Below the pieces are notes generated by a model. That model saw nothing but the letters and a program-made list of their open reading frames with translations, searched no databases and was not told the origin of the DNA. Below, piece by piece: positions 5,467 through 20,000 of a stretch of DNA of 20,000 nucleotides. Source of the DNA: an uncultured virus (IMG/VR IMGVR_UViG_3300010340_000980) (lineage: Duplodnaviria; Heunggongvirae; Uroviricota; Caudoviricetes); the IMG/VR virus record IMGVR_UViG_3300010340_000980. The stretch is one strand, 5' to 3'. The position numbers and the translations under genes are program-made. The first letter of the stretch is position 1. The number at the start of each line of letters is the position of its first letter.

Positions 5467-6026
5467 TTATCTTTGAGGGATTATCTTTAAATATCTTATA
5501 TTTAAAGTATAAGATGATATTAGAGACCAAAGAAATTTTGACATCTGAGATATATAAGAGTATTCCTTTAGAGGATTTGATCCTATTAAAAGAGAAAGCA
5601 TAGTTTTTTCATCCTCTGTTATAGTACCTTCTCCCATTTTTTCAAATAGATTGTCAATGGTCTCCCTTCTATTAGTATTAGATTGATTGCTTTTTATCAA
5701 CTCTAAGAATTTCTGAAATCTGTTGTAAAGTCTATTATTCTCATCTGGTTTATTTAAGAAATCGTAACTTTCCCACCCTTCTTGCAAATATTCCAATATC
5801 TCAGTTCTAAAGTAGGTTTTTCCTAATTTCTCATATATCTCCCCATTTTTAATTTCCTTTGGGATATATCTAGTATCGCCAATATTTTTAAGAACTTCAT
5901 CTATACCTATACCAAAGTAGTCTTCTATCATCTGGACATTTCTATCCCGTTTGATATTGGTAATATATCCATAATCATCATACTCACCATGTATTGGAAA
6001 TCCAAATGGTGAGAAGAATGTTTGAC
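5467..6026 (-). pseudogene. internal fragment of a hypothetical phage gene
   Basis: Protein-like core (FFSPFGFPIHGEYDDYG...) whose nominal start lies in the antisense strand of the helicase gene; the last ~20 residues look out of frame (another frame reads ISLVSNIILYFKYKIFKDNPSKIRKKNKN*). Confidence 0.55.
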
Positions 6027-8810
6027 AACGAAGTTCATTATGGTGTTGAAACTGAAAAAACACAGGATTTCTTAAACAAGATTAAATATACAAGAATGTT
6101 AGGTTTGTCAGCAACTCCAACAAGAAATTTACTATGTGGTAGATTTTCTAAGGAACAAATTCATAACTATACCTTAGTTGAGGAAGTCAAATTGAAAAAA
6201 CAATACCCAGATTTATATCCATATGCTGATATTAACTTCCTTATTTGGAACTTATCTGGTAGTGAGAAATCGGAATTGAAATATTTTTCTGATGAAGAAC
6301 AATTTAAGTTTGATAAGTTTTTTAGAATTGAAGGTGATGAATTTTATTACAAGTCTGATATTATCTATCTTTTTAAGAAATTATCTGGTGATAGAGATAT
6401 ATGTCGTAGAGATAAATTAGGAACTTCTTATCCATTTAAAAACAATGGTGAATTTTCTGTTGTAAAATCTATATTATTATTCCTTCCAAATATTGCTGTT
6501 CAATATAAATTGAAATCATTATTGGAAGAATTGGAATCTTATGATGATTTTAATATTCATATTACAAATAGCAATGAATATTCATCTAATCAATTAATTA
6601 AAAGAATTAGAAGAGAATTTAAGTCAGGTGATAAGAGAAGTTTAATTTTAGCAGTTGATCAATTAACAACTGGAATTACATTAGATGATTGTGATATGGT
6701 CGTTTTAATGAATGATTGGAGGTCAGTTGATAAATATGTTCAAGCATCATTTAGATGCCAATCTCCAAGAGAAGGTAAAGAAAATTGTTGGGTATTGGAT
6801 TTCAATGCTGCTCGTTCATTTGAATTGATGTGGGAATATCAAAACATTATCTCAAAAAATAATGGAAAAGGAATTGCTGAAAATATCAAAGAATGGGTTG
6901 AGTGTGTAAATATCTTCAATAGAATTGAAGGTGAAATGATTAAAGTTGATTTTGATGGATTCAATAATGAATATAATAAGTCTGTTTTAGAAAGACCGAG
7001 ATTTAATTATCAATCTGTTATTTTACAAGATAAGTTGGGACATGATAATATCAGTAAGGCTTTAATGGCAATTGGTATTAAGGGTGGTTCATCATCTTCT
7101 GATGAAGATTTGAATGATGATGGTATTGATAAGGGCAAGAGTAAAAAAGGTGGAAATGTTGGTGGTAAGAAGGGAGAAAAGAAAGAGGAAATAAGTCAAG
7201 TTAAATTAATGGAGATTGCTAAGGCATTAGTCGATAAAACTATGTTGTTGAGTATTTTTACTTACTTCAAACATGATAATGTAGATGATTGTTTTAAGTC
7301 ATTAGAAGAAGATAATACAATCGTTAAAGGTATTGGTGATTTGGAAAGAAAGATGTATTTGGAGACATTATTATTAGGAATGAATGACGTTGATAAGGTA
7401 GATTTGAGTGTTATCAAGTTTATTTATGATAATATATTTGACAAAGAGATAGTCAATAAGAAGATATATTTATTCAACCAAAACGTAAATTTAATATATA
7501 ATAGTATCGGGGAAAATCCTGGTATTATTAGTGATATGTTAGGAAATTTAATGGAATTGGTGGATAGTTATTTGAAGCCTTCAAATACGGAGAAGAAAAT
7601 GCTTGGTGAAGTTTTCACAAGTTTAGAATTGGTTGAAGAAATGCTGGATAAACTTCCAGTTGAAGTTTGGTCTAATCCTGAATTGAAATTTTTAGATCCG
7701 GCAAATGGGATCGGAAATTTTCCGGTTATTCTTGTTAAGAAATTAATGGAAGGGTTAAAGGATTGGCAACCTGATTCGGAATTGAGATTAAAACACATCT
7801 TAGAGAATCAAATTTATGTTTGTGAATTACAATCTAAGAATATGTTTATTTACTTACAATTATTTGATTCGGAAAATAAGTATAAGTTGAATTTTCATAG
7901 AGGATCTTTCTTAGATGAAAATTTCAAGTATGTTATGAAGGAATGGGGAGTTGATAAATTTGACGTTGTTGTTGGGAACCCTCCTTATAATAATGATCAA
8001 AAAGCAGAAGGTAAGAGAGGCGGAGGTTCCACTTTATGGGATAAATTTGTTATAAAAGTTTTAAATTCTTTTTTAAAGGAAAATGGATATTTAGTTTTTG
8101 TTCATCCTACTCTTTGGAGAAAACCTCAATCAGATAGAAGCACTTCAAAGGAAGTTAGTGAATTAATGATGAAAAAACAAATTCATTATTTAGAGTGTCA
8201 TGATTCAAATGATGGAATGAAAGTTTTCAACGCTGGAACAAGGTATGATTTTTACGTTTTGGAAAATTGTCCGATATATAAAGAGACATTAATAAATGGT
8301 GAAGATAGAAAGGATGTTTTAGTCAATCTTAAAAATTATGATTTCATTCCAAATTATAATTTAGAACTTTTTGATAGAATAATAGCAAAAGAAGGTGAGG
8401 ATAAATGTCCTATACTTTTTAATGTTTCAAATTATGAAACTAGAAAATCATGGGTATCTGATGATAAAAATGATGAATATAAATATACTCTAATACATTC
8501 TACTCCAAAAGGAGGAACAAGATATAAATATTCTTCAAGAAATGATAATGGTCATTTTGGTATATCAAAAGTTATATTTGGTGATAGTGGAATAGGTGAT
8601 GCCATAATTGATATGATTGGTGAATATGGAATGACACAGCACTCTATGGGGATTTTAGTATCTTCACTGGAAGAGGCCAACAATATTAAAAAAGCATTAT
8701 TGAGTAATGAGTTTAATGAGTTTTTAAAAACCGTAATGTGGTCAAATTTTCAAATTGACTGGAAGTTATTTAGTTATCTAAAAAAAGATTTTTGGAAGGA
8801 ATTCATATGA
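5994..8810 (+). CDS. 5'-truncated SF2 helicase fused to Eco57I-like N6-adenine DNA methyltransferase (Type ISP/IIG-like R-M protein)
   Basis: Helicase motifs: II remnant NEVHYG, III GLSATP, V LTTGIT, VI YVQASFRCQS, but no Walker A. MTase motifs GEVFT, FLDPANGIGNF, VGNPPY, then a TRD-like C-terminus. Confidence 0.85.
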   Translation: MEIQMVRRMFDNEVHYGVETEKTQDFLNKIKYTRMLGLSATPTRNLLCGRFSKEQIHNYTLVEEVKLKKQYPDLYPYADINFLIWNLSGSEKSELKYFSDEEQFKFDKFFRIEGDEFYYKSDIIYLFKKLSGDRDICRRDKLGTSYPFKNNGEFSVVKSILLFLPNIAVQYKLKSLLEELESYDDFNIHITNSNEYSSNQLIKRIRREFKSGDKRSLILAVDQLTTGITLDDCDMVVLMNDWRSVDKYVQASFRCQSPREGKENCWVLDFNAARSFELMWEYQNIISKNNGKGIAENIKEWVECVNIFNRIEGEMIKVDFDGFNNEYNKSVLERPRFNYQSVILQDKLGHDNISKALMAIGIKGGSSSSDEDLNDDGIDKGKSKKGGNVGGKKGEKKEEISQVKLMEIAKALVDKTMLLSIFTYFKHDNVDDCFKSLEEDNTIVKGIGDLERKMYLETLLLGMNDVDKVDLSVIKFIYDNIFDKEIVNKKIYLFNQNVNLIYNSIGENPGIISDMLGNLMELVDSYLKPSNTEKKMLGEVFTSLELVEEMLDKLPVEVWSNPELKFLDPANGIGNFPVILVKKLMEGLKDWQPDSELRLKHILENQIYVCELQSKNMFIYLQLFDSENKYKLNFHRGSFLDENFKYVMKEWGVDKFDVVVGNPPYNNDQKAEGKRGGGSTLWDKFVIKVLNSFLKENGYLVFVHPTLWRKPQSDRSTSKEVSELMMKKQIHYLECHDSNDGMKVFNAGTRYDFYVLENCPIYKETLINGEDRKDVLVNLKNYDFIPNYNLELFDRIIAKEGEDKCPILFNVSNYETRKSWVSDDKNDEYKYTLIHSTPKGGTRYKYSSRNDNGHFGISKVIFGDSGIGDAIIDMIGEYGMTQHSMGILVSSLEEANNIKKALLSNEFNEFLKTVMWSNFQIDWKLFSYLKKDFWKEFI

Positions 8811-11594: not shown

Positions 11595-11795
11595 TTTTAA
11601 CATATCATTGAACTCAATATCAATAACTCCATCCAAATCACTATAAATTTCTCTTAAAACCATCTTTAACCTAACCAATTCATCATCCGAAAACAAACCA
11701 TCATTTAGTTTATTTCCAAAAACAACTTTTGACATACCCATTTTTTGAGCCAATAATGTTTGGTTCAATTTCCATTTTTTAATTACTTCTAACAT
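11583..11795 (-). CDS. small XRE-like helix-turn-helix protein linked to the transposase
   Basis: LNQTLLAQKMGMSKVVFGNKL HTH pattern; start overlaps the transposase end. Confidence 0.7.
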   Translation of the reverse strand: MLEVIKKWKLNQTLLAQKMGMSKVVFGNKLNDGLFSDDELVRLKMVLREIYSDLDGVIDIEFNDMLKSII

Positions 11796-12723
11796 TTTTT
11801 AATTCTTTATAGGTTAAACGATTGTTAATATTATTAAGGACATAATCAAATCTATAACTTTCTGAAAATCCACGAGTATTATATCTAAATACAAATTCAT
11901 CAACATATCTCTGTAAATGTTTCTTACTCATAGAGTGATAAATTCCCATTATTCCTCTTTTCAAAATTGCCCAAAATCCTTCAATTGTATTGGTATGAAT
12001 ATCACCTTTAACATATTCTTTACTATTGTGTTTAACAACATTATGATCAAATATTTTAGATAATCCTTTATATCCCAACCATTCGTCAGTATTTAATGGA
12101 TTTCCAACTTCTAAATTTTCATGTATAAACTTCTTTAAGATTTCACCTGATGTTCCATCTACAACATTTGCTCTTAATTCTCCACCTCTTTGTATAATTC
12201 CAACAACAGGAGTTTTGGTTTTCAAACTTCTACCTTGTGTTCCTTTTGTCTTCTTACTTTGATGTTTATTCTTTTCTTGACCACCAATATAAGTTTCATC
12301 TGCTTCACAAGTTCCTTCTAATTTACCAGTTGGTTGATTATTTAATCCTAAACTATGACGAACTCTATGAAGCATAAACCAAGCAGTTTTTTGTGTAAGT
12401 CCTAAATCTTTGTGTAATTGTAAAGAAGATATACCTTTCTTATGAGAAGTTATAAGATAAATAGCAGCAAACCATTTTTGTAGAGATATTTTACTTCCTT
12501 CAAACATTGTTCCAACTCTTACCGAAAATTGCTTCTTACATTTATCACATTTATAGACTTTACCATTACTATATTTAAAAACTTTATCATGCTTACAATC
12601 TTCATAGGGACAGGTTATATTTCCATTCCATCTAATTTGTTCCAAGTAATCTCTACATACTTGTTCATTATTGAAGTATGTAAAAAGTTGGACTAAATTA
12701 TTGAATTTCTGTAAGATTATCAT
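11779..12723 (-). CDS. IS1595-family DDE transposase
   Basis: Zn ribbon (CPYEDC...CDKC), KKGISSLQL/QKTAWFMLHR HTH, catalytic EADETYIGG, TDEWLGY, HTNTIEGFW, and EFVFRYN. Confidence 0.95.
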   Translation of the reverse strand: MIILQKFNNLVQLFTYFNNEQVCRDYLEQIRWNGNITCPYEDCKHDKVFKYSNGKVYKCDKCKKQFSVRVGTMFEGSKISLQKWFAAIYLITSHKKGISSLQLHKDLGLTQKTAWFMLHRVRHSLGLNNQPTGKLEGTCEADETYIGGQEKNKHQSKKTKGTQGRSLKTKTPVVGIIQRGGELRANVVDGTSGEILKKFIHENLEVGNPLNTDEWLGYKGLSKIFDHNVVKHNSKEYVKGDIHTNTIEGFWAILKRGIMGIYHSMSKKHLQRYVDEFVFRYNTRGFSESYRFDYVLNNINNRLTYKELKNVRSN

Positions 12724-14778: not shown

Positions 14779-14799
14779 AATTAATTTTATTTTTTTTAG

Positions 14800-14871
14800 T
14801 AGCGATACCAGGAATCGAACCTGGTCCTCAAGGATATGAGCCGAGTGAGCTTGCCGTTACACCATATCGCC
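14800..14871 (-). tRNA. tRNA-Met(CAT), weak anticodon stem
   Basis: GGCGATA/TATCGCT acceptor, loop CT-CAT-AT, T arm CCAGG-TTCGATT-CCTGG; two mismatches in the anticodon stem; Met versus Ile2 identity unresolved. Confidence 0.7.
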
Positions 14872-14876
14872 ATTTG

Positions 14877-14957
14877 TGCCAAGAGTGGGACTCGAACCCA
14901 CAAACCTTCAGGAACAGAGGTTTGAGCTCTGCGCGTTTACCATTTCACCATCTTGGC
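14877..14957 (-). tRNA. tRNA-Leu(CAA)
   Basis: GCCAAGA/TCTTGGC; CAGAG-CTCAAAC-CTCTG; variable arm. Confidence 0.92.
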
Positions 14958-14962
14958 ATTTG

Positions 14963-15034
14963 TTCCAATGACCAGAGTTGAACTGGTGTCTCACCGATAC
15001 CAACGGTGTGTAATTGCCGTTATACGACATTGGA
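14963..15034 (-). tRNA. tRNA-Thr(GGT)
   Basis: TCCAATG/CATTGGA; CACCG-TTGGTAT-CGGTG. Confidence 0.88.
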
Positions 15035-15039
15035 ATTTG

Positions 15040-15113
15040 TAGTCCTGACCGGGTTCGAACCGATGACCTCTTGGATGTCGACCAAGCGCTCTAACCATCT
15101 GAGCTACAGGACT
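15040..15113 (-). tRNA. tRNA-Val(GAC)
   Basis: AGTCCTG/CAGGACT; CTTGG-TCGACAT-CCAAG (C at position 33). Confidence 0.9.
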
Positions 15114-15116
15114 ATT

Positions 15117-15830
15117 TTAATAACTTTTTCCTTCTTTATATCTTTCTCTTCTTTTATGTCTTCCTTTTCCTCTATTTAATGCTTTATATGTTGGTGTTAA
15201 TGAGTGGCAATTTGGACATAATAACTCAAGATTATCAAGATTATTATTTTCTGAATTACCATCTATATGTTCAAGTTCTATTGGAACTTTATTTGTTATA
15301 GGATTTTTCTCACACCATCCACACCTCATACATTTTTCACCATATATCTCAATTAGAAATCTTTTAGCCATTTTTGAACCATGATTTACACCATTTCTAA
15401 TTTCATCAAATTTAATTTTTCTTTCCAGATTTCTTTGACATTTTATAGAACAGTATTTTCTTTTTAAGAACATATAATTTCTATCAATTTCATATTCCGA
15501 ATTACAGCTTTCACAAATTCGAAATATTTTCTTATCTTTTTCTATCAGAGAATTATCTTTGTTTATTTTTTCATCACTTTCTTTTAGATTTAGAAAAGTT
15601 CTCGAACAGCTCATTGAACAAAACTTTCTTTCTTCACTTATTAGACAATCAAATTCTTTATTACATTGTGAACATATCTTTTTCTCTCTTTTTAATTCAT
15701 TATATTTTGATTTTAATTTATATTTTGATTTTATTCTAACAACCGAAGATCTCGAAATATTCAAAATGTCCGCGATTTCATTATTAGTCAATCCTTGATC
15801 CAATAGATTTTCTAAAATTTGAATTTTCAT
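15117..15830 (-). CDS. free-standing HNH homing endonuclease with N-terminal HTH and Cys zinc fingers
   Basis: GLTNNEIADILNISRSSV HTH; CxxC...CSxxC repeats; ELEHIDGNSENNNLDNLELLCPNCHS; TAATATATA at 15856-15848. Confidence 0.9.
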   Translation of the reverse strand: MKIQILENLLDQGLTNNEIADILNISRSSVVRIKSKYKLKSKYNELKREKKICSQCNKEFDCLISEERKFCSMSCSRTFLNLKESDEKINKDNSLIEKDKKIFRICESCNSEYEIDRNYMFLKRKYCSIKCQRNLERKIKFDEIRNGVNHGSKMAKRFLIEIYGEKCMRCGWCEKNPITNKVPIELEHIDGNSENNNLDNLELLCPNCHSLTPTYKALNRGKGRHKRRERYKEGKSY

Positions 15831-15882
15831 ATTTTAATTTTTTATTTTATATATTAAAAATATGAGCCTCCCGTCAAAATAG

Positions 15883-15963
15883 AGCCAAGAGCCGGATTCG
15901 AACCGGCGATGTTTGTGTTCCTCATTACAAGTGAGGTGGAGTCAACCGCTGTCCCATCTTGGC
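15883..15963 (-). tRNA. tRNA-Thr(TGT) with 12-nt variable region
   Basis: GCCAAGA/TCTTGGC; CCTCA-CTTGTAA-TGAGG; GCCGG-TTCGAAT-CCGGC. Confidence 0.85.
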
Positions 15964-15967
15964 GTTA

Positions 15968-16080
15968 ATGGAGGAAAGTTCTAAAAGTGGTTTATACTGA
16001 GGGATTTGAACCCTCTTTTATTGTGTTTAAGACAATTGTGTTAACCATTTCACGAAGTAACACTTTTAATTACCATCCAT
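15968..16080 (-). ncRNA. stem-closed ncRNA with embedded tRNA-like cloverleaf (TAA loop); Y-RNA-like candidate
   Basis: Outer stems ATGGA/TCCAT and TAAAAGTG/CACTTTTA enclose D-, anticodon- and T-like arms; 5' motif shared with 16340-16420. Confidence 0.6.
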
Positions 16081-16083
16081 TTG

Positions 16084-16166
16084 AGGTACTAACTGGATTC
16101 GAACCAGTGTGAGTGGTTTTGCAGACCACTGCCTTCCGTCTTATGACACCACTCGGCCATAGTACC
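16084..16166 (-). tRNA. tRNA-Cys(GCA) with enlarged D loop
   Basis: GGTACTA/TAGTACC, U73; GTGGT-CTGCAAA-ACCAC; D loop holds an extra GTC-ATAA-GAC hairpin. Confidence 0.85.
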
Positions 16167-16172
16167 TTGTTG

Positions 16173-16247
16173 TTGGAATAGTAGGATTTGAACCTACGAC
16201 ATTTCGCGTATCAGGCGAACGCTCTCACCAGGCTGAGCTATATTCCA
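16173..16247 (-). tRNA. tRNA-Ile(GAT)
   Basis: TGGAATA/TATTCCA; TTCGC-CTGATAC-GCGAA. Confidence 0.92.
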
Positions 16248-16252
16248 ATTTG

Positions 16253-16336
16253 TAGGTCCACCCGGATTCGAACCGGGGTTAACTTCTCGTCTCCACTTTG
16301 TAAGAGTGGGATGTTTTACCACTACACCATGGACCT
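16253..16336 (-). tRNA. tRNA-Val(TAC) with 15-nt variable region
   Basis: AGGTCCA/TGGACCT; CCACT-CTTACAA-AGTGG; CCCGG-TTCGAAT-CCGGG. Confidence 0.85.
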
Positions 16337-16339
16337 ATT

Positions 16340-16420
16340 AAGGAAAGAAAACCTTAGAAGAGTATATTTTGAGCAAATATTAAAAATCAGCGAAGTAACT
16401 CTTTCTAATTACCATTCCTT
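16340..16420 (-). ncRNA. second, shorter stem-closed ncRNA of the same family
   Basis: AAGGAATGGTAATTAGAAAGAGTTACTTCG...ACTCTTCTAAGGTTTTCTTTCCTT; stems covary with 15968-16080. Confidence 0.55.
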
Positions 16421-16423
16421 TTG

Positions 16424-16504
16424 TCGGCGTGACTGGGATTGAACCAGCATTTTCACTTACCAATTACCCGTAGCAATCTTATCAGGATTGAGGGTTACAC
16501 GCCG
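16424..16504 (-). tRNA. atypical tRNA-like gene, anticodon GAT (Ile), rearranged D region
   Basis: CGGCGTG/CACGCCG acceptor; CAATC-CTGATAA-GATTG arm only 7 nt after it; TAATTGG element 3' of the anticodon arm; T arm GCTGG-TTCAATC-CCAGT. Confidence 0.7.
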
Positions 16505-16530
16505 TTTTGTTCCAACTGGAACACTTTTTG

Positions 16531-16603
16531 CGGGTCAGGTGGGTAACGATCCCACTCTCCTCGGTTTAACAGACCGCCGCTGTACCATACTAGCTTCTGA
16601 CCC
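16531..16603 (-). tRNA. tRNA-Asn(GTT)
   Basis: GGGTCAG/CTGACCC, G73; CGGT-CTGTTAA-ACCG; atypical T loop ATCGTTA. Confidence 0.82.
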
Positions 16604-16617
16604 TTGTATTCTTTTTG

Positions 16618-16704
16618 AGGACAGGGTGGGATTCGAACCCACGATGGAACTTTCATTCACCAGATTAACAGTCTGGACTTTTCGGCCACTAAAGCAACCC
16701 ATCC
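16618..16704 (-). tRNA. tRNA with Asn anticodon (GTT) and type II long variable arm
   Basis: GGATGGG/CCTGTCC, U73; CCAGA-CTGTTAA-TCTGG; GAAT-GAAA-GTTC variable arm. Confidence 0.82.
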
Positions 16705-16709
16705 TTTTG

Positions 16710-16782
16710 TAGCCCCTGCGGGATTCGAACCCACATTCTCGCTTTAGAAGAGCGATGTCCTGTCCAGTTGGACGAAGGAGCC
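16710..16782 (-). tRNA. tRNA-Arg(TCT)
   Basis: GGCTCCT/AGGGGCT; TCGCT-CTTCTAA-AGCGA. Confidence 0.92.
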
Positions 16783-16837
16783 ATATTTGGGTTTTTACAA
16801 TACCTTTCGGATATTTTCAGTCCCAACTCTGTTTTTG

Positions 16838-16926
16838 TACACTAGAAGGGATTCGAACCCCCATTTGATACTATCGCATCTCCAATTACGTATAAGGAGG
16901 TAGAAGCTCCCCTCGGATACTAGTGC
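16838..16926 (-). tRNA. atypical tRNA-like gene, anticodon TCT (Arg), rearranged D region
   Basis: GCACTAG/CTAGTGT acceptor; GGGAG-CTTCTAC-CTCCT; TAATTGG element after the anticodon arm; GGGGG-TTCGAAT-CCCTT. Confidence 0.7.
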
Positions 16927-16989
16927 ATTTTTATTTTTTAACGGGTTTAAGTTTCACAACTAAACCCGACCAGGATTAATTCCTGTTAG

Positions 16990-17077
16990 TGCCTCAGGTG
17001 GGACTCGAACCCACAACGTTTTCCACAAGGGTATTAGTTTCTAAAACTAATGCGTTTCACCGTTTCGCCACTGAGGC
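16990..17077 (-). tRNA. tRNA-Leu(TAG)
   Basis: GCCTCAG/CTGAGGC; TTAGT-TTTAGAA-ACTAA; long variable region. Confidence 0.9.
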
Positions 17078-17086
17078 ATTTATTCG

Positions 17087-17169
17087 TACCCAAGGAGAGA
17101 CTCGAACTCTCACGTCCTTTCAGACACCGGCTTCTTAGACCGGGGTGTCTACCATTCCACCACCTGGGC
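17087..17169 (-). tRNA. tRNA-Leu(AAG)
   Basis: GCCCAGG/CTTGGGT; CCGGT-CTAAGAA-GCCGG; GTC-TGAAAG-GAC variable arm. Confidence 0.9.
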
Positions 17170-17215
17170 ATTACCATTTCGCATTTTAAGAGTGCGATAT
17201 GTCACCTTCTCTTTG

Positions 17216-17290
17216 TACTCCCCATCGGATTCGAACCGATACCTGTACAGGGTTTAAGTCTGTTGCCTCTGCCGATTGGGCTACGGGAGC
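17216..17290 (-). tRNA. tRNA-Leu(TAA) lacking a long variable arm
   Basis: GCTCCC/GGGAGT acceptor (G-G at pair 7); loop CTTAAAC; ATCGG-TTCGAAT-CCGAT. Confidence 0.82.
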
Positions 17291-17300
17291 ATTTATTATA

Positions 17301-17432
17301 CTATATTACAATATTCCATCCTATTGACATTTCTATAATTGATTTCGCCATTGGAAAACATCTTTTTATTTCTTCCTTTTTCATTCCATTTACTTGACAG
17401 AATGCCCTTCCATTTATCATTATAATTTTCAT
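17301..17432 (-). CDS. small hypothetical protein (43 aa, MKIIMINGRAFCQ...GWNIVI)
   Basis: Hand-translated; A-rich leader; exactly fills the space between the attenuator and the first tRNA. Confidence 0.55.
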   Translation of the reverse strand: MKIIMINGRAFCQVNGMKKEEIKRCFPMAKSIIEMSIGWNIVI

Positions 17433-17462
17433 CTTTATTTTTTTTAATATTGTTTTTAAAAT

Positions 17463-17496
17463 AAAAAAACCCGAACTTCTTTCGATGTTCGGGTTT
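17463..17496 (-). terminator. intrinsic terminator of the leader (attenuator)
   Basis: AAACCCGAAC-ATCGAAAGAA-GTTCGGG followed by a T7 tract on the minus strand. Confidence 0.88.
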
Positions 17497-17517
17497 GTAT
17501 TATTTGGAGTTATTACT

Positions 17518-17628
17518 TCACCTTAAGATGAATCCAAATTTTGCACAACCCGAACCAACGGTTCTAATACATAACGTATTATTCACCATTGTGAGATTCA
17601 AATTGATATTTAGATTCATTGTTTTCAT
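17518..17628 (-). CDS. attenuator leader peptide, 36 aa (MKTMNLNINLNLTMVNNTLCIRTVGSGCAKFGFILR)
   Basis: ATG 17628 to TGA 17518; ends 21 nt before the terminator; contains GTTCGGGTT complementary to the terminator 5' arm; codons mirror the downstream anticodons. Confidence 0.8.
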   Translation of the reverse strand: MKTMNLNINLNLTMVNNTLCIRTVGSGCAKFGFILR

Positions 17629-17635
17629 TATTTCT

Positions 17636-17644
17636 TATATATTA
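17636..17644 (-). promoter_or_regulatory. TAATATATA phage promoter-like motif upstream of the leader
   Basis: Same motif precedes at least eight gene starts in this window. Confidence 0.6.
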
Positions 17645-17675: not shown

Positions 17676-17707
17676 CAAATATAAGGTGGATTTTTTATCC
17701 CACCAAA
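17676..17707 (-). promoter_or_regulatory. Bacteroidetes-type primary-sigma promoter (TTTG-N20-TATATTTG)
   Basis: Matches the -33 TTTG / -7 TAnnTTTG consensus and spacing. Confidence 0.7.
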
Positions 17708-17751: not shown

Positions 17752-17782
17752 CAAATATACAATAAAGTTTTAAATTTCCAAA
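17752..17782 (-). promoter_or_regulatory. second Bacteroidetes-type promoter (TTTG-N19-TATATTTG)
   Basis: Same consensus, in tandem with the first. Confidence 0.7.
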
Positions 17783-18027: not shown

Positions 18028-18450
18028 TTATACTACTTCTAAAACTTCAATGTCAAAAATCAAAGTTTGACCAGCTAATGGGTGATTAGCATCAACGATA
18101 ATATTATCATCATTAACTTCACGAACCATAAATGTCACCATTTCACCATTTTGCATATTTGCTTGAAGAGATTGACCAACTTGTACGCCTTGTGGCGCAT
18201 TAGTTTTTGGAACAGTAACTCTCAATTCATCTCTATATTCACCATAAGCTTCAATAGCAGGAATTTCAATAGTTTTTTTATCACCAGCAGAAAGACCTAG
18301 AATACCATTCTCAAAACCTGGGATTAGTGATCCTTCACCAATAACGAACTCAATTGGTTCTCTACCATCTTTCAATGAAGAATCAAACTCTTCATTATTT
18401 GTTAAACGACCAGTATAATGGGCTTTAACTTTACTACCTTCTTTAATCAT
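18028..18450 (-). CDS. FKBP-type peptidyl-prolyl isomerase (SlyD/SlpA-like, no His-rich tail)
   Basis: VKAHYTGRL...FDSS...GREPIEFVIGEGSLIPGFE...AYGE...VDANHPLAGQTLIFDIEV. Confidence 0.93.
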   Translation of the reverse strand: MIKEGSKVKAHYTGRLTNNEEFDSSLKDGREPIEFVIGEGSLIPGFENGILGLSAGDKKTIEIPAIEAYGEYRDELRVTVPKTNAPQGVQVGQSLQANMQNGEMVTFMVREVNDDNIIVDANHPLAGQTLIFDIEVLEVV

Positions 18451-19358: not shown

Positions 19359-20000
19359 TTAAAAAACTGGACTTTTAATTTTTACATCTTCACCATATAC
19401 AATTACACCAACTTTATTCTCAATAGTTGAGAGTGGTGGAAATTCTACTCGGTCAATAACCCATCTTTCAATTAGTAGATCTGGATTGAGTCTTGCTTGG
19501 TGTTTAGCTGGAAGTCTTTCAAGTTCTGAAGAACTAAACTTAGTAACAACTCGCTTTCTTTGAATATAACTACCTCTCTTAAAAAAAGATGGATAATCAT
19601 TCCAATTTACACCTTTTTGGAAAAGAAGTTCTTGTTTTTCAGAACCATTCTTACCCATAAGAAAATTATGTGAGTAGTATTCAGAAGCAGCCATTGTAAT
19701 AGAGTTCTTGGTTGCATCTTTCTCTCTCCAATAGAAAGTATTCACAGCTTCATCTACATTTGGAACATTCCAAACTCGACAGTCAAATCTTGGCATTTTA
19801 TCTTTCTTTTCTGGAAGATATTCAGCAAGTTTAGAATTGAAGAATACAGAACCCATTGAAGATAGATCTGAAATCATTTTGAAAAGTCTACCATCAAAAT
19901 AGATTTTTGATTCATGAGTATCAGAGTACCACATAAGAGTAATTTCATCACTTTGAGTGTAACCACAGTTAGCATTAGTCTCTTTTACAAGATACTTTGT
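19359..20000 (-). CDS. Thg1-like tRNA(His) guanylyltransferase / 3'-5' polymerase, 5'-partial
   Basis: Frame open to the window edge: GYTQSDEITL, FDGRLFK, FDCRV, WREKDATKNSI, GVNWNDYPSFFKRG. Confidence 0.92.
   Translation of the reverse strand, partial: TKYLVKETNANCGYTQSDEITLMWYSDTHESKIYFDGRLFKMISDLSSMGSVFFNSKLAEYLPEKKDKMPRFDCRVWNVPNVDEAVNTFYWREKDATKNSITMAASEYYSHNFLMGKNGSEKQELLFQKGVNWNDYPSFFKRGSYIQRKRVVTKFSSSELERLPAKHQARLNPDLLIERWVIDRVEFPPLSTIENKVGVIVYGEDVKIKSPVF

Follow-up and report, generated by a model that had tools for sequence, protein, structure and literature searches.

The window (the whole stretch of DNA analysed, 20,000 nucleotides of an uncultured Caudoviricetes virus, IMG/VR IMGVR_UViG_3300010340_000980) looks like part of a huge phage genome, with its small AT-rich genes, its Thg1, HNH and T5orf172 proteins and its tRNA array. 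On the minus strand, an intrinsic terminator with a U-tract (a hairpin of -16.5 kcal/mol followed by T7) sits between a short leader uORF and the tRNA genes (Table 1); a simple terminator scan missed it because the loop limit of that scan was 8 nt. Two boxes of the form TAnnTTTG, which the promoter sections of PMC6847099 give as the Bacteroidota consensus, stand upstream of the leader, and transcription by a host-type RNA polymerase would start at the sigmaA-like promoter. The spacer of the leader-proximal promoter contains an inverted repeat (17704-17685, minus), a possible operator or weak terminator; inspection by eye shows comparable repeats in the promoters of homologues.

Table 1. Coordinates of the leader, its alternative folds, the tRNA array and other genes of the window
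Feature	Position	Strand	Remarks
Thg1 tRNA-His guanylyltransferase gene	19359..19934	-	
FKBP-type isomerase gene	18028..18450	-	
Upstream Bacteroidota sigmaA-type -7 box (TAnnTTTG)	17752..17759	-	TTG-type element ~20 nt before it; consensus from the promoter sections of PMC6847099
Leader-proximal sigmaA-type promoter, predicted	17676..17707	-	putative TTTG 17707-17704 and -7 box 17683-17676
AATATATA motif	17636..17643	-	8-15 nt before leader ATG; recurs before many window genes
Leader uORF, 36 codons	17518..17628	-	A at -3; AT-rich upstream
Sensor codons 2-24	17557..17625	-	effective end near Arg22 (17563)
Long 1:2 protector hairpin, predicted	17528..17619	-	17619-17608 with 17539-17528; 17605-17596 with 17555-17546; apex 17591-17556
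Small hairpin GAACC-GTT-GGTTC	17552..17564	-	minor; conservation does not extend to distant homologues
Segment 2, antiterminator 5' strand	17547..17555	-	read directly in the sequence
Inner and apical hairpins, which lengthen 2:3 and include the stop codon	17502..17539	-	predicted to fit the terminator state too
Segment 3, shared strand	17487..17496	-	read directly in the sequence
Segment 4 and U-tract of intrinsic terminator	17458..17476	-	T7 at 17469-17463, then A, T4
43-codon ORF between terminator and first tRNA	17301..17432	-	among fetched loci, only in two identical to the window
tRNA array, 15 genes, proposed to be controlled	14799..17290	-	13 anticodons, 8 amino acids
HNH endonuclease gene	15117..15830	-	inside the array; own AATATATA motif at 15855
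IS1595 transposase gene	11779..12723	-	
Helicase-methylase fusion gene	5994..8810	+	

The array runs in the order Leu TAA, Leu AAG, Leu TAG, Arg TCT, Asn GTT (twice), Val TAC, Ile GAT, Cys GCA, an atypical Leu TAA, Thr TGT, the HNH gene, Val GAC, Thr GGT, Leu CAA and Met CAT; Rfam at gathering score reports tRNAs only. Its first tRNA starts ~180 nt past the terminator, after the 43-codon insert, as against 14-18 nt in most homologues of this leader type. The signal before the HNH gene may uncouple the last four tRNAs through separate transcription. The first tRNA (17290-17215, minus) has a TAA anticodon with a short variable arm, unusual for Leu, and the same gene stands first in many homologous arrays. 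A tRNA-Leu(TAA)-like gene at 16082-15968 (minus), with a decayed copy at 16418-16338, has a long extra stem around the acceptor and a conserved AAAGTGTTACTTCG motif that is present in 25 other fetched loci (some duplicates), and may represent an unusual tRNA class. Two further elements on the minus strand are a tRNA-like fold that has a GAT loop and whose arms are rearranged (16515-16420), missed by ARAGORN and Rfam, and a tRNA-like element with an enlarged anticodon arm (16929-16832), which ARAGORN calls undetermined at a relaxed threshold. Rare anticodons of the ANN and TAT kinds (Leu AAG, Val AAC, Gly ACC, Thr AGT, Ser ACT and Ile TAT) occur in the arrays of L009, L029, L101, L106, L146, L206 and others, implying inosine or unusual decoding.

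The putative switch is built around a 9-mer, GTTCGGGTT, that occurs twice on the minus strand, at 17555-17547 (segment 2) and at 17476-17468 (the 3' arm of the terminator), with AACCCGAAC at 17495-17487 (minus) as the strand that both can pair with. When the stretch upstream was dinucleotide-shuffled 5000 times, 4 of the shuffles contained the 9-mer. Segment 2 begins at the second base of leader codon 25, the codon named by an earlier, sequence-only reading of this locus, whose sequences and coordinates are all correct on the minus strand and stand above shuffle controls. The 2:3 helix is extended by an inner hairpin, in which ATTTGGA (17539-17533) pairs with TCCAAAT (17508-17502), and by an apical hairpin (17532-17517) that contains the leader stop codon, TGA (17520-17518; all minus).

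Folding energies place these structures in two partly overlapping states. The stretch 17455-17570 folds with z = -3.98 (1 of 200 shuffles is equally good), and the 2:3 hairpin, at -24.9 kcal/mol, is equalled by 7 of 300 spacer shuffles. The whole antiterminator comes to -24.6 kcal/mol, its basal 9 bp alone to -12.2, and the inner and apical hairpins together with the terminator to -25.7. The claim that the two folds are mutually exclusive should thus be limited to the basal 2:3 helix, for which it stands; the inner and apical hairpins are predicted to fit both states, and for them it does not. Naked RNA including segment 3 is predicted to be in 2:3 (P 1.00 in the window, 0.44-1.00 across 20 aligned homologues), and full-length naked RNA at equilibrium favours protector plus terminator by ~9 kcal/mol. 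With the terminator the usual winner once the full-length RNA is at equilibrium, the switch has to work kinetically.

As segment 1, the part that would shield segment 2, the small hairpin proposed in that reading was rejected: it is worth -4.8 kcal/mol alone, has probability 0.00 in naked RNA, forms in the model mainly with a ribosome on codons 11-18, and pairs in only 60% of the cells of the 20-row alignment. A long hairpin, in which segment 2 and the strand beyond it fold back onto codons 4-11, is predicted to be the better protector. In the window it reaches -31 kcal/mol (z -3.3), with 2 of 300 codon-order shuffles as stable; across the 20 rows its z lies between -0.4 and -5.6, more than 8 of 100 shuffles are as stable in 8 of the rows, and its register is not alignable across subfamilies.

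The codons of the leader correspond to the tRNAs of the array. When the AAG anticodon is taken to carry inosine, 22 of the 23 codons at positions 2-24 are readable by the array (Lys2 is the sole misfit), every one of the 13 anticodons is sampled by at least one leader codon, and four different Leu codons face four Leu anticodons. Background readability is 0.369 (4437 codons in 20 window ORFs), the binomial probability of the leader match against the window's own codon use is 4.5e-9, and the best of 3977 sliding 23-codon windows in the 20 ORFs has 16 of 23 codons readable. From segment 2 onward the match drops to 4 of 12 codons. Most leader codons of the window occur once, and with most codons present once the sensitivity to any one tRNA may be low.

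Homologous loci were collected with patterns of differing strictness. The three-strand pattern gave 15 viral loci, 14 of them directly before tRNA arrays (several are duplicates); a looser pattern gave 81 matches, 40 with a tRNA within 800 nt and the other 41 left unclassified; and a type-specific pattern gave 30 metagenome loci, 29 of which precede this array type. Two metagenome loci are 100% identical to the window and not independent of it, and the leader was not found in cultured phage records. A search with the sensor codons only placed 12 of 53 matches before tRNAs (41 were left unclassified), and 9 of the 12 have a different core helix, TGAGGG / CCCTCA / TGAGGG versus TTCGGG / CCCGAA / TTCGGG. 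An automatic finder blind to codon content returned 61 unique candidates, of which 55, in 15 classes, were kept; the six left out were two with a stop-to-arm distance of 75-78 nt, one on a truncated contig and three lying 570-660 nt before a lone tRNA, and some finder candidates inside arrays were regarded as noise. Mixed-codon leaders with terminators occur 570-660 nt before a lone tRNA-Leu(TAA) in L102, L103 and L105. Unrelated leader classes have unrelated helices in the same layout. Examples of the leaders are MYATTKTTKTTKTTKKR, which precedes three Thr and three Lys tRNAs, and MHSRRQDRMWDRM, which precedes Arg, Met, Asp and Trp tRNAs.

Twenty homologues chosen to span both core-helix types were aligned. 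Segments 2, 3 and 4 have changed jointly in 9 of the 20, which probably represents one or two evolutionary events and not nine. The 2:3 strands are paired in 92.7% of cells, as compared with at most 57.8% in slid controls, and include three pairs in which both sides have changed. 3:4 tracks the change in 2:3: once each sequence was re-registered, all 20 rows pair at the eight outer positions and 18 of 20 at the loop-proximal one. Before re-registration, terminator pairs stood at 77.5% in alignment A2, in which nine rows were displaced by one column at the 3' end. Two type-counting covariation measures showed no gain over shuffles (488/500 and 439/500), and RNAalifold found double changes in 0 of 17 pairs of the pattern-selected set. 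The reading frame of segment 2 is kept in all 20 rows. The strand changes in these rows answer the covariation check that had been suggested for homologues, and probably reflect those one or two events.

The correspondence between leader and array extends beyond the window. In 16 leader-array pairs, amino-acid recall is 0.97 for matched and 0.43 for mismatched pairs, and none of 100,000 permutations pairs leaders with arrays as well, in all eight score variants. These pairs comprise one for each of the 15 classes plus one hand-located class, a Pro/Asp/Gln leader with a weak 2:3 duplex (-5.3); the Leu/Val/Cys class is represented by L085 and not by L053, whose array runs on into five unmatched tRNAs, a choice that favours the match. 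Position along the leader matters as well: between 12 and 5 codons ahead of segment 2 the 55 leaders match their arrays at 0.76-1.00, over the last four codons the match falls to 0.59, 0.58, 0.49 and 0.16, and it is also low at codons 2-7.

A ribosome covers ~12 nt ahead of its P site, and the decay of the match over the last four codons fits such coverage. Footprints of 11, 13 and 15 nt ahead of the P site were tried in a footprint model, in which 2:3 is free for stalls up to codon 22-24, the limit varying with the footprint chosen, and blocked from there to codon 32-33, and in which the terminator is the outcome of stalls at codons 13-14 and 19-24 as well. Model and match drop together put the end of the sensor codons about one footprint before segment 2. 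The caveat raised earlier, that a ribosome at codons ~21-24 may itself cover segment 2, is thus upheld by the fall in match, and the end of the sensor, formerly placed right at codon 25, moves to near codon 22. The stop codon comes 35 nt after segment 2 begins, and without steric hindrance the model allows 2:3 to form with the ribosome on codons 34-37, so the notion that full translation melts 2:3 is too simple. The general proposal of a 2:3 / 3:4 switch coupled to translation of the leader is supported both by the joint change of the strands and by the footprint model. The distance from stop to terminator arm is 18-33 nt (median 24) in all 55 kept leaders; this range was no requirement of the finder, and the two candidates at 75-78 nt were dropped as false.

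Sister modules were examined in relatives of the window. The leader region and a 385-aa protein match LR756502.1 (642,428 bp) and LR745206.1 (634,780 bp); the genome descriptions in PMC7162821 assign its largest genomes, which are of such sizes, to the Mahaphage clade and predict Bacteroidetes hosts for them. Seven leaders occur in LR756502.1, before Phe/His/Trp/Lys, Arg/Ser, Glu/Tyr (read by eye), Ile/Gly/Ala, window-type, Pro/Asp and Gln blocks, and with sensor stretches trimmed by hand the true pairing of leaders with blocks is the best of 5040. Several antiterminator duplexes in these 635-642 kb genomes are weak (-2.6 to -5.3). Two contigs that share the leader type of the window, G003 and G004, have three and five leaders.

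Such modules are also present in five Bacteroidota-type genomes. The strict pattern has five matches in genomes, four of them leaders that sample nearly all amino acids with the same helix, in Microscillaceae/Cytophagaceae-type records; a 506-aa gene is in view for three of the four, and its homologue in L088 is TROVE/Ro60. In G006 (L206:2660-11100, C27) a near-all-amino-acid leader attenuator, TROVE/Ro60, tRNA-Met repeats, an RNA ligase and further tRNAs form an operon-like run, a candidate unit for tRNA repair and resupply; the same genome has four block-specific leaders as well, for example MNWNNNKYKNYKKWWGNCLE before Asn, Trp and Lys genes. A search of 31 genomes added 11 loci, with Leu-rich leaders before Leu blocks in four genomes (G008, G010, G014 and G030) and, within the same set, no leader at five lone Leu genes or at the tuf-operon tRNAs of G006, and two loci lacking upstream DNA.

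Taken together, the anatomy, the codon-anticodon match, the joint change of three strands and the geometry point to a ribosome-mediated transcription attenuator that would exert negative feedback on a phage block of Leu, Asn, Thr, Val, Ile, Cys, Arg and Met tRNAs, a reading to which we assign a probability of about 0.86; transcription, translation and regulation are proposed on the basis of the sequence. The attenuator appears to be real and is very probably functional, with a known mechanism and tRNA genes as the target, a target that the earlier reading did not name. In the proposed mechanism, host-type RNA polymerase would start at the sigmaA-like promoter, and the nascent leader is predicted to fold into the long protector hairpin, which an initiating ribosome would melt. 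With the sampled tRNAs plentiful, the ribosome would lie over segment 2, or on the stop codon within the antiterminator's top, as segments 3 and 4 are emerging; the terminator would then form and transcription would end near 17460. A ribosome at the stop, already past segment 2, would presumably cause termination by steric exclusion, and its release may determine a basal leak. Were any one of the 13 isoacceptors to run short, the ribosome would stall at about codons 5-22, 2:3 would form before segment 4 exists, and polymerase would read into tRNA genes whose products read the stalled codon. The sections of PMC1183508 on this mechanism likewise describe how, when the ribosome stalls within the control region, II:III is able to form while IV has yet to be made. 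The separate sampling of isoacceptors and a product that would relieve the stall seem to fit loss of tRNA better than amino-acid starvation.

The same switch could instead read general failure of translation (host shut-off, antibiotics, no initiation), codon content adding little. The predicted 2:3 pairing of naked RNA with segment 3 suggests that an untranslated leader might read through, and leaders with the same helix that sample nearly all amino acids do exist; class- and position-specific codon matching and the partition of leaders within single genomes are left unexplained, and we consider this alternative unlikely. A constitutive terminator, or one overcome by a phage antitermination factor, with the uORF as a relic, is less likely again: segment 2 changes along with segments 3 and 4, the frame is preserved and so is the spacing of the stop, and the match tracks array content (two leaders have Ser TCG codons where their arrays carry Ser TGA), even if the terminator dominates the full-length equilibrium and the AATATATA motifs could be phage promoters. 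The leader peptide itself might be the effector, through nascent-chain arrest or in trans, as the nearly invariant N-T-L-C-I-R coding stretch of this leader type (partly a product of how the search patterns were constructed) could suggest; this is very improbable for sixteen leader classes that share no peptide motif and each match their own array. Chance likeness of an AT-rich ORF with a duplicated 9-mer, in DNA whose composition does favour Asn, Ile, Leu and Lys codons, is refuted by the homologue data, with the layout recurring in dozens of loci; the binomial test above also speaks against it.

The attenuator preferred here resembles trpL and hisL as presented in the mechanistic sections of PMC1183508: a uORF with regulatory codons, a I:II / II:III / III:IV layout in which I:II is here a predicted fold, an intrinsic terminator and a stop codon placed so that it can determine basal read-through. 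In Flavobacterium psychrophilum, the candidates ilvE and hisG, in the part of PMC9723704 dealing with them, belong to the same class of amino-acid operon attenuators. Unlike that class, the modules described here have tRNA genes and not enzymes as the putative target, with a product that directly reads the sensor codon; they sample 13 anticodons once or a few times, in place of a single-amino-acid run, and are repeated within one genome.

In attenuation of the pheM/pheST type, ribosome stalling feeds back on the supply of charged tRNA through an aminoacyl-tRNA synthetase; one amino acid is sensed and the target is protein-coding, whereas here tRNA genes would be controlled.

The T-box, as outlined in the relevant sections of PMC4052509, also lets tRNA status decide termination, but it binds uncharged tRNA directly and has no uORF; the Rfam T-box has no match in the window at gathering score or at E up to 10. 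Rfam biosynthetic leaders score below gathering (Thr_leader 18.4 of 55 bits, Trp_leader 17.2 of 41 bits), and the downstream genes are tRNAs. The Anabaena trn L-array is, in the main text of PMC8421152, an accessory tRNA array induced under impaired translation and co-regulated with an RNA ligase gene; it differs in having a repressor that acts at initiation and is not codon-specific (TrcR, PMC10272220), and the words 'attenuat' and 'leader' occur 0 times in that main text. Phage tRNAs that offset tRNA-cleaving defences such as PARIS (PMC12409363) offer a plausible purpose for the array; the opening of that paper's abstract mentions no conditional, codon-sensing expression of the kind proposed here. 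We found no account of leader-peptide attenuation of tRNA genes in the literature searched, which lay largely outside the older comparative attenuator surveys, and none in the relevant sections of PMC2965389, PMC8421152, PMC4052509, PMC7162821, PMC9723584, PMC9723704 and PMC6847099.

It has long been asked why phages carry tRNA genes, and both codon bias and counter-defence have been put forward as explanations. Were tRNA genes switched on only when their own codons are read slowly, their use would be demand-driven, a 170-nt reporter in a cultured host from the Bacteroidota would make the question testable, and attenuation would reach beyond enzymes to tRNA genes, in a direct feedback loop. 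Such a switch would also suggest in general terms why some bacterial tRNA arrays seem silent, and would supply natural isoacceptor-specific sensors of tRNA depletion. A tentative extension, to which we would give slightly less than even odds, is that these loci belong to a widespread unpublished class of tRNA-gene autoregulators in huge phages and some Bacteroidota, with leaders that test codons block by block; in the phage they might serve as an inducible counter-defence that resupplies only the tRNAs that have been cut or exhausted by the host, and in the bacterium an all-amino-acid version might couple resupply to Ro60 and RNA ligase. If so, leader sequences would record which sets of tRNAs come under attack together.
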